Assembly (NCBI GenBank): GCA_963707935.1
Contig: CAVPRN010000001.1
Coordinates: forward strand, 589,030 to 653,029
DNA from: an uncultured Acidobacteriota bacterium
Lineage (GTDB): Bacteria > Acidobacteriota > Thermoanaerobaculia > UBA5066 > Gp7-AA6
Direction: 5' to 3'
DNA length: 64,000 nucleotides
A model generated the notes under the pieces. That model made no database searches, was not told the origin of the DNA, and worked only from the letters and a program-made list of their open reading frames with translations. Positions 26,168 to 26,839 of the stretch are shown here, in pieces. The number at the start of each line of letters is the position of its first letter. Within the stretch, counting starts at the first letter, position 1. Both the position numbers and the translations under genes were made by a program.

Positions 26168-26839
26168 ATGAAGCTCTGGAAGAAGATCCTCCTCGGCCTC
26201 GGGCTCCTCGTCCTCGCGGTCGTCGCCTACGGCGTCGTCTCGTTCGGCCCCAAGAACGTCATCGGGATGCTGCGCTACGACCAGCGCGAAAAGGGGAAGC
26301 TGAAAGTCGGCGATGCGGCTCCGGATGTCGCGCTCCTCGCTCTGGACGGCTCGACCCCGGTGAAGCTCCAGGATTCGATCGGCGGAAAGCCCCTCGTCCT
26401 CGTCTTCGGCAGCTTCACCTGACCCCCCTTCCGCCGCTCGGTCGAGCGCGTGCAGGCGATGAACCGCAAGTACGGAGAGCGGGTGCGGTTCCTGACCCTC
26501 TACATCAAGGAGGCGCATCCCGAAGACGAGTGGCAGATGGAATCCAACGCGAAGGACAAGGACAACGTCTGCTACAAGCAGCCCCGGACCACGGCGGAGC
26601 GCGTGGCGATCGCCAACGACTTCGTCAAGCGATTTCACTACGACATCCCGCTCGTCGTCGATCCGATCGAGAACCGCGCCAACGCCGTCTACGCGGGCTG
26701 GCCCGAGCGCTTCTACATCGTGGACGAGCAGGGCACGATCGTCTACAAGGGCAAGCCCGGCCCCTTCGGCTTCCACCCCGAGGAGGTCGAGGCCTGGCTC
26801 GCGAAGCGCTTTCCGGAGAGCACAGCGGCGGGAGGCTAG
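26168..26839 (+). CDS. Membrane-anchored iodothyronine-deiodinase-like thioredoxin-fold selenoprotein (in-frame TGA = Sec at 26420-26422)
   Basis: ORFs 26042..26422 and 26450..26839 share one frame. The joined sequence is KPLVLVFGSFT-U-PPFRRSVERVQAMNRKYGERVRFLTLYIKEAHPEDEW ... [28 protein letters not shown]. This matches the deiodinase signatures FGSxTUPPF, YIxEAHPxDxW and ERxYVI..G.I.Y.G..GP. N-terminal TM helix KKILLGLGLLVLAVVAYGVV. Confidence 0.85.
26432..26450 (+). promoter_or_regulatory. Candidate bacterial SECIS hairpin
   Basis: CG(C)CGCUC-GGUC-GAGCGCG forms a 7-bp stem with one bulged C and a GGUC loop. It starts 9 nt after the UGA, so the loop G-U sits 22-23 nt from the U of UGA. Confidence 0.6.

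Follow-up and report, generated by a model that had tools for sequence, protein, structure and literature searches.

The DNA considered in this study is a 64-kb stretch from an uncultured Acidobacteriota bacterium, referred to over its whole length as the window, and it harbours a deiodinase-like gene that we interpret as encoding a selenoprotein (coordinates are positions in the window, and the sequence is shown on the + strand). The coding sequence extends over 26168..26839 (+), from an ATG at 26168-26170 (MKLWKK…) to a TAG at 26837-26839, in one frame whose sole interruption is a TGA at 26420-26422, and comprises 223 codons, including the selenocysteine (Sec) codon 85, followed by the stop. 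Mechanical open reading frame (ORF) calling breaks this gene into two pieces. ORF 26042..26422 (+) contributes only 26168-26419 as real coding part of this gene, its upstream part overlapping the 3' end of the preceding M24 peptidase gene, and ORF 26450..26839 (+) is the C-terminal piece, found in databases as a 'hypothetical protein / type I thyroxine 5'-deiodinase' of ~125 amino acids. An initial annotation of this DNA had placed both ORFs in one frame, separated by the TGA and nine sense codons, and had joined them into a deiodinase-like selenoprotein. The shared frame was borne out, the read-through peptide (…KPLVLVFGSFT*PPFRRSVERVQAMNRKYG…) is exactly as quoted there, and the interpretation is supported, all of its checkable elements having held. 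The two ORFs are parts of one gene of the deiodinase family, in which a conserved UGA is followed by a conserved and covarying Sec insertion sequence (SECIS), and we consider it highly probable that 26168-26839 is a single UGA-recoded gene encoding a deiodinase-family selenoprotein.

A search of 5.8 billion proteins with the product of this gene retrieved two kinds of close homologs. More than 100 proteins of 122-149 amino acids, 71-89% identical to the query, cover only its C-terminal ~55% and start just after the hairpin that follows the TGA; these are truncated gene calls. Indeed, the expectation of the initial annotation that a standard gene caller would split the gene is reflected in dozens of such database entries beginning just past the SECIS. 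Full-length homologs of ~210-240 amino acids, with 50-57% identity, carry cysteine instead and read FGSFT-C-PPFRR. Clustered at 50% identity (E ≤ 1e-3), the family as a whole comprises 2,944 clusters, many of which are truncated calls. At the DNA level, a scan of GTDB species-representative genomes yielded 170 relatives, of which the best 80 loci were analysed, and it is to these that counts out of 80 refer below. Almost all of them come from metagenome-assembled genomes (MAGs) of Acidobacteriota, many labelled Thermoanaerobaculia, the remainder belonging to Holophagales, a Polyangiaceae MAG, a Verrucomicrobiae MAG and the isolate Polyangium sp. 6x1. The ortholog of this isolate (L079 3341-3982, NZ_JARZHH010000141.1) keeps the TGA and the SECIS, as do the other orthologs from outside Acidobacteriota (L066 and L069); their occurrence there might reflect horizontal transfer or a binning error.

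The orthologs at the 80 loci share the start, the TGA and the stop region of the window gene. TGA occupies the homologous codon in 80/80 loci, which belong to different species, with the frame open on both sides, and this exceeds what chance would give. Codon-position entropies over these loci (0.65/0.45/1.04 upstream of the TGA and 0.46/0.39/0.92 downstream) indicate purifying, coding-type selection on both sides of it. In agreement with the claim that the stop falls exactly at a Sec position, the TGA column holds cysteine in full-length homologs, encoded by TGC in the Cys-type homologs L082 and L083, and falls on the Sec→Cys position of the Dio3 and Dio2 crystal structures. Two JGI proteins (P0005 and P0008) show tryptophan in this column. 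A genuine Trp variant was rejected for P0008, since the corresponding DNA (L081 438-1142) has TGA translated as W, and we assume the same UGA-as-W mistranslation for P0005.

These data also bear on the simplest alternative, namely that the TGA is a true stop and that the locus represents two genes, a pseudogene or an assembly error. Gene callers do give two ORFs, a GTG (26450) and an ATG (26459) occur downstream of the TGA, and many database entries start there. Such a split would, however, break a thioredoxin fold at its active-site motif, and both the Pfam domain and the Dio3 alignment described below cross the TGA. Homologs that end at this position and are followed by a separate gene, an outcome the initial annotation had allowed for, are ruled out by the continuity of the Cys homologs, and a misread TGC or TGT is ruled out by the presence of the same TGA in 80 independent assemblies, together with coding-type conservation upstream of it. 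Moreover, the gap between the two ORFs has no conserved ribosome-binding context and is filled instead by a hairpin with frozen synonymous sites. Taken as a whole, the true-stop explanation is effectively refuted.

This hairpin, a bacterial SECIS element at 26434..26449 (+), begins 11-12 nt past the UGA (26434/5-26448/9) and consists of a core helix (26435-26439/26444-26448) closed by a GGUC loop (26440-26443). In the 80-sequence alignment the segment CGCUC-GGUC-GAGCG is nearly invariant by nucleotide, the GGUC loop is invariant in 80/80, and the 6-bp helix 26434-26439/26444-26449 has 94.9% of its cells paired, although the window itself has a C·C mismatch at the sixth pair (26434/26449). Compensatory changes were found in three of the six pairs: U-A→G-C in 4 sequences, C-G→G-C in 1, and G-C↔C-G in 12. 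None of 500 shuffles (0/500) reached the observed pairing or covariation, pairing fell to 23-70% in slid registers, and RNAalifold independently recovered the 5-bp core. The initial annotation had described a 7-bp stem with one bulge at 26432-26450. This form is present in the window with the GGUC loop, as CGC(C)GCUC-GGUC-GAGC-GCG with one bulged C, and can be regarded as an alternative conformer, but the orthologs favour the straight core of 5-6 bp.

The signature of the hairpin is equally apparent in the codons that contain it. Third positions of codons 90-93 have entropies of 0.27, 0, 0 and 0.19, compared with ~0.9-1.0 elsewhere, while in the Pro and Arg codons on either side they are free to vary (1.2-1.6). 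The U-A→G-C change in the stem comes at the cost of a change in the protein, S91A plus E93A, and since these substitutions accompany stem-restoring changes, the RNA structure is kept at the expense of protein sequence. In L081, a distant Sec homolog, the stem is built of other bases (GUCGCC/GGCGAC) and GGUC keeps its offset. Cys-type genes have no hairpin, their folding energies being -2.8 and -3.7 kcal/mol as opposed to -9 to -11 kcal/mol for Sec-type genes. The constraints of the bSECISearch model for bacterial SECIS elements, as quoted in PMC13188914, comprise an apical loop of 3-9 nt on an upper stem of 4-16 bp, a G at loop position 1 or 2, mostly with G or U after it, a distance of 16-37 nt from the UGA to the apical loop, and a minimum free energy of -7.5 kcal/mol or lower. 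The hairpin downstream of the UGA, which the initial annotation had described as SECIS-like, agrees with this published consensus on all four points, with a loop of 4 nt on a stem of 5-6 bp (7 bp when bulged), a loop starting with GG, a UGA-to-loop distance of 17 nt (26423-26439) and a minimum free energy of -10.3 kcal/mol (26429-26455).

Decoding of the UGA at 26420-26422 by SelB and tRNA-Sec is inferred from this combination of features. A ribosome reaching the UGA at codon 85 would encounter SelB·GTP·Sec-tRNA(Sec) bound to the GGUC hairpin 11-12 nt downstream, and Sec would be inserted at codon 85 as it is at the UGA of E. coli fdhF. Acidobacteria have been recorded as having selenoproteins (PMC1794560). 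Several results nevertheless weigh against this scheme. The 66-nt region around the hairpin, with 69% GC, has no unusual folding energy (z = 0.66), and Rfam gave no match to the hairpin at either gathering or permissive thresholds. A search for tRNA-Sec over the 64-kb window and the ±10 kb flanks (1.3 Mb) of the 80 loci found none, and short signature motifs of SelA, SelB and SelD matched nothing in these sequences. The Rfam result is uninformative because the Rfam bacterial SECIS models are lineage-specific, and the absence of selC from the window says little because the window is a small part of the genome. As for the folding energy, the significance of the hairpin derives from its cross-species conservation and covariation only.

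Two further ways of reading the UGA were considered. Genome-wide reassignment of UGA was rejected, since neighbouring genes stop at TGA: 4/10 Pfam-verified neighbours do so, including the gene 13 nt upstream. Alternatively, the UGA might be recoded to Cys or another amino acid by a SelC*-type tRNA(Cys) or by an allo-tRNA acting as an opal suppressor, possibly under the guidance of the hairpin and SelB. tRNA-Sec-like allo-tRNAs that are possible nonsense suppressors occur in Acidobacteria, and SelC* tRNA(Cys), which may read UGA, in δ-proteobacteria (PMC5389517); the lack of a tRNA-Sec in the window and the flanks of the 80 loci would also fit. On the other hand, TGA is kept in 80/80 loci while sister clades use TGC, so the residue is likely to be functionally unlike Cys; the hairpin agrees with the consensus for SelB-type SECIS elements and has the fdhF loop; and animal deiodinases have Sec at the aligned position. 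The window covers no more than a small fraction of the genome, so that the missing selC weighs little, and we regard recoding to Cys or by a suppressor as very improbable, and Sec as the residue at codon 85 in what follows.

The window was also searched for other recoding sites. No second selenoprotein was found among its same-frame, TGA-split ORF pairs, one of which, with a TGA at 19762-19764 (-), proved to be an OmpR-type response regulator followed by a histidine kinase and was rejected as a recoding site. A scan of 1.36 Mb for a UGA followed by a hairpin and an ORF returned only ordinary adjacent genes and non-coding frames.

The 223-amino-acid product was assigned to a protein family by profile and Protein Data Bank (PDB) searches, which were run with U85 written as C. 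Its residues 40-214 match the Pfam family T4_deiodinase (PF00837) at 132.5 bits, where the cutoff is 27 (E=2e-38), and this match spans the TGA. Redoxin and AhpC-TSA Pfam matches were also above threshold, although much weaker and overlapping the PF00837 region; that to AhpC/TSA (PF00578; 30.1 bits against a cutoff of 26) is wholly covered by the much stronger PF00837 match. The NCBIfam model NF038285 ('deiodinase_rel'), in turn, scored 198.8 bits against a cutoff of 250, with the match confined to the C-terminal half of its 347 positions; being partial and below the cutoff, it therefore points to a different subfamily. The best PDB sequence matches are mouse Dio3 (4TR3/4TR4, E=2.7e-24) and Dio2 (9H48, E=8e-22), at 30-34% identity, and the counterparts of the active-site motif FGSFT-U-PPF in the alignments are FGSCT-C(Sec)-PPF in Dio3 and FGSAT-C(Sec)-PPF in Dio2.

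A structural comparison led to the same family. The protein modelled was P0004, a full-length Cys homolog 57% identical to the window product, for which AlphaFold2 gave a model with a predicted local distance difference test (pLDDT) score of 89.3. The top Foldseek hits of this model are 9H48 and 4TR3 (Dio2 and Dio3; TM-scores 0.82 and 0.80, E ~1e-14), followed by ResA, TlpA and 1-Cys peroxiredoxin (Prx) folds with E ~1e-8, some 10^6 weaker than the deiodinases. The PF00837 match, the Dio3/Dio2 matches and the P0004 model together support a deiodinase-type catalytic domain of thioredoxin fold at 26285..26809 (+), corresponding to residues 40-214. The deiodinase signatures that the initial annotation had recognised at and downstream of the active site are upheld by the PF00837 score and by the top rank of Dio3 and Dio2 in both sequence and fold.

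The same applies to its claim of an N-terminal transmembrane anchor as in deiodinases, which is located at 26186..26242 (+), approximately residues 7-25 (ILLGLGLLVLAVVAYGVVS), and corresponds to a hydropathy peak and to a modelled helix of P0004. At the N-terminus, MKLWKK-ILLGLGLLVLAVVAYGVVS, basic residues lead into a hydrophobic helix; among 19-residue stretches, hydrophobicity is greatest for the one beginning at residue 7 (mean Kyte-Doolittle value 2.56), and the AlphaFold2 model of P0004 has an N-terminal helix over residues 3-25. The difference in flanking charge across the helix favours an N-in/C-out orientation in 56/62 orthologs, which suggests that the catalytic domain may face the periplasm.

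The residues of this domain agree only in part with those of the animal enzymes. The deiodinase motif Y112-I-K-E115-A-H117-P-E-D-E-W122, encoded at 26501..26533 (+), aligns with YIEEAHPSDGW of Dio3, and S82, T84, Y112, E115, H117 and W122 are invariant in 80/80 orthologs. In deiodinases the element YIxEAHPxDxW comprises the edge of the Dio insertion (loop-D) and proton-relay residues, the relay consisting of Ser, Thr, Tyr, Glu, His and a second His (PMC11592359). The only cysteine of the protein, Cys135 (26570..26572, +), is invariant in the 80/80 Sec-type orthologs and is replaced by V or L in most Cys-type homologs; judging from this pattern, it is a candidate resolving thiol for a selenenyl-sulfide intermediate. 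The proximal and distal Dio cysteines are absent at the aligned positions.

From these residues a catalytic cycle may be proposed, in which the substrate class, the resolving cysteine and the topology are all inferred. The selenolate would lie within S82-x-T84-U85-P-P-F at the start of helix α1, beside Y112, E115, H117 and W122, and would attack an electrophilic atom of the substrate with the aid of the S/T/Y/E/H network. Our preferred candidate for this atom is the halogen of a halogenated phenolic compound, which would be abstracted as X+ as in deiodinases; Cys135 or an external thiol could then resolve the resulting Se-X or Se-OH intermediate, with re-reduction to follow. Halogen abstraction is favoured because the deiodinase-specific insertion and the relay are invariant, and we adopt it tentatively, at somewhat less than an even chance. 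The next reading, in which the attacked atom would be a peroxide oxygen, is plausible but should be held at clearly below even.

Some observations tell against a dehalogenase. The position of the second relay His is an invariant Pro139 in the 80 orthologs, and the position of the carboxylate clamp (Arg275 in Dio3, Lys241 in Dio2) is Pro197, which is P in 69/80 orthologs and never R or K. Experimental activity was not found in the searched literature for any bacterial member of the family. Furthermore, fusions with CMD/AhpD-like domains, or neighbouring genes encoding them, are found among distant homologs and would be more in keeping with peroxide chemistry.

The alternative suggested by these features is a Sec-dependent peroxiredoxin-like protein or thiol-disulfide oxidoreductase, that is, a periplasmic peroxide or disulfide reductase rather than a dehalogenase. 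It would account for the weaker, above-threshold Redoxin and AhpC-TSA matches, for ResA, TlpA and 1-Cys Prx being the second-tier structural neighbours, and for the lack of conservation of the thyronine-binding residues, and a membrane anchor with a probably outward-facing domain resembles ResA/CcmG. A generic redox role was also proposed in the 2005 Sargasso Sea paper (PMC1088965). Against it stand the Dio insertion with its invariant Y112, E115, H117 and W122, which is absent from Prx and ResA, the ~10^6 gap in Foldseek E-value to non-deiodinase folds, and the absence of any CMD/AhpD gene within ±8 kb of the gene in the window. The Prx motif P-x3-T/S-x2-C is also incomplete, with Ser at -3 from U85 and Leu instead of Pro at -7. 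On balance we consider a peroxiredoxin or oxidoreductase function a serious possibility, still falling well short of an even chance, and retain halogen abstraction as the preferred chemistry.

The distant homologs merit a separate description. P0180, P0187, P0192, P0202, P0259 and P0269 share the motif FGNFTCGPFR and are fusions of 400-900 amino acids with EF-hand pairs; some of these distant fusions also carry a CMD/AhpD-like domain, and one a ceramidase-like domain. At the locus of a Cys-type homolog (L082 4622-5827), two CMD-domain genes adjoin. These fusions and neighbours could be a sign that some branches of the family work through a redox relay of the peroxiredoxin/AhpD type.

Two tandem paralogous genes for M24 peptidases of the creatinase/prolidase type precede the selenoprotein gene, at 22769-24712 (+) and ~24790-26154 (+), the product of the second bearing a Tat-like signal (MTWNRRRFLSTSGAAVGSLALASSARA). 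The second gene ends 13 nt before the ATG at 26168, here and in the 9 closest loci, and an upstream M24 gene occurs only in the closest ~10 loci; a possible Shine-Dalgarno sequence, GAGGGA, at 26153..26158 (+), read off the sequence, overlaps its TGA stop (26152-26154). This spacing suggests that the M24 peptidase and selenoprotein genes might be co-transcribed. On the other side lies a convergent ORF, 26839-27603 (-), with a signal-peptide-like N-terminus and no Pfam match, whose stop codon overlaps that of the selenoprotein gene; it occurs only in the window and in L002, the other relatives having a DUF2127 gene directly after the selenoprotein gene. This DUF2127 membrane-protein gene, at 27606-28184 (-) in the window, is the most conserved neighbour (54/80 loci) and is also convergent. 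Further downstream, an ORF of ~200 amino acids at 28646-29254 (+) matches only the middle of an acetamidase/formamidase profile (positions 198-271 of 373) and is conserved in 45/80 related loci, and it is probably a real small protein rather than a gene fragment. The neighbourhood was examined as a clue to function and offered nothing usable, DUF2127 being convergent and uncharacterised and M24 being restricted to the closest loci.

The window gene belongs to a known bacterial selenoprotein family, here represented by a soil acidobacterial clade, and both this family and its mis-annotation problem are already known. The gene and its orthologs in at least 170 species-level genomes have been deposited as ~125-amino-acid fragments or 'hypothetical proteins', and these should be joined and marked as selenoproteins. 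The strict conservation of UGA and SECIS constitutes indirect evidence that Thermoanaerobaculia-type Acidobacteriota decode Sec. It also offers a clean case of SECIS covariation, in which the S91A/E93A double change may serve as a teaching example of RNA structure constraining protein sequence. This clade is well suited to work on the function of bacterial deiodinase homologs, a question dating from 2005, combining the animal-type U-P-P-F, the relay residues, one invariant candidate resolving Cys and an ortholog in the cultured Polyangium sp. 6x1 (L079). A more specific proposal, which we consider unlikely as it stands, is that the clade comprises cobalamin-independent, selenium-dependent, periplasmic membrane-anchored reductive dehalogenases of natural iodinated or brominated soil phenolics. 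If it were true, these enzymes would be a bacterial counterpart of the thyroid-hormone deiodinases, possibly with their ancestral activity, and would link selenium use to halogen cycling in Acidobacteriota.

Deiodinase-like proteins with a bacterial SECIS and Cys homologs were described from the Sargasso Sea in 2005 by Zhang, Fomenko & Gladyshev (PMC1088965), and the family appears in the 2022 and 2026 reviews of prokaryotic selenoproteins with its function unassigned (PMC9312934, PMC13188914); no paper combining deiodinase, Acidobacteria and selenoprotein was found among those searched. The window gene shares with the 2005 family the PF00837 domain, the UGA/Cys pair at the active site, the SECIS directly downstream and a presumed redox role. 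It differs in its source, since the 2005 members came from marine metagenomes whereas the window clade consists of Acidobacteriota/Thermoanaerobaculia of soil and sediment. In comparison by tabulated motif, the representative of the family in the reviews has UxxC, in contrast to U-P-P-F in 80/80 loci and a remote Cys135 in the window clade. The clade is further set apart from this representative by its score below the NF038285 cutoff and by the strict retention of Sec across its members.

With the membrane-anchored periplasmic thiol-disulfide oxidoreductases ResA/TlpA/CcmG and with 1-Cys peroxiredoxins, the window protein has in common an N-terminal anchor and a thioredoxin fold, and it gives weak sequence matches to them. 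It differs in having no CxxC and in containing the Dio insertion, and these matches are ~10^6-fold weaker than those to deiodinases.

Regarding the RNA element, the initial annotation had pointed to a likeness to the SECIS of E. coli fdhF. A 47-nt sequence of this SECIS matched fdhF at 100% identity across 5,412 E. coli genomes, and the likeness is confirmed: both are in-frame hairpins just past the UGA with the same GGUC loop, at a spacing of 18 nt in fdhF and 17 nt here, and the alternative fold of the window element resembles fdhF in having a bulge on the 5' side after 4 bp. The stem sequences are, however, unrelated, there is no sign at the window hairpin of the long lower stem of fdhF, and the bulge is not conserved, most orthologs forming a straight 6-bp helix that cannot adopt the bulged conformer.

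In the vertebrate enzymes Dio1-3 (4TR3, 9H48) the SECIS lies in the 3' untranslated region, whereas that of the window gene is in the coding region right after the UGA; the window protein has Pro at the positions of Arg275 and of the second relay His, no proximal or distal Cys, and a Cys135 located elsewhere; its bacterial host makes no thyroid hormone; and its catalytic domain is probably periplasmic. The window protein shares with Dio1-3 one N-terminal transmembrane anchor, a thioredoxin fold with the Dio insertion, the active-site motif G-S-x-T-Sec-P-P-F, the Y/E/H/W residues of YIxEAHPxDxW, and the ERxY…G.I.Y.G..GP tail.

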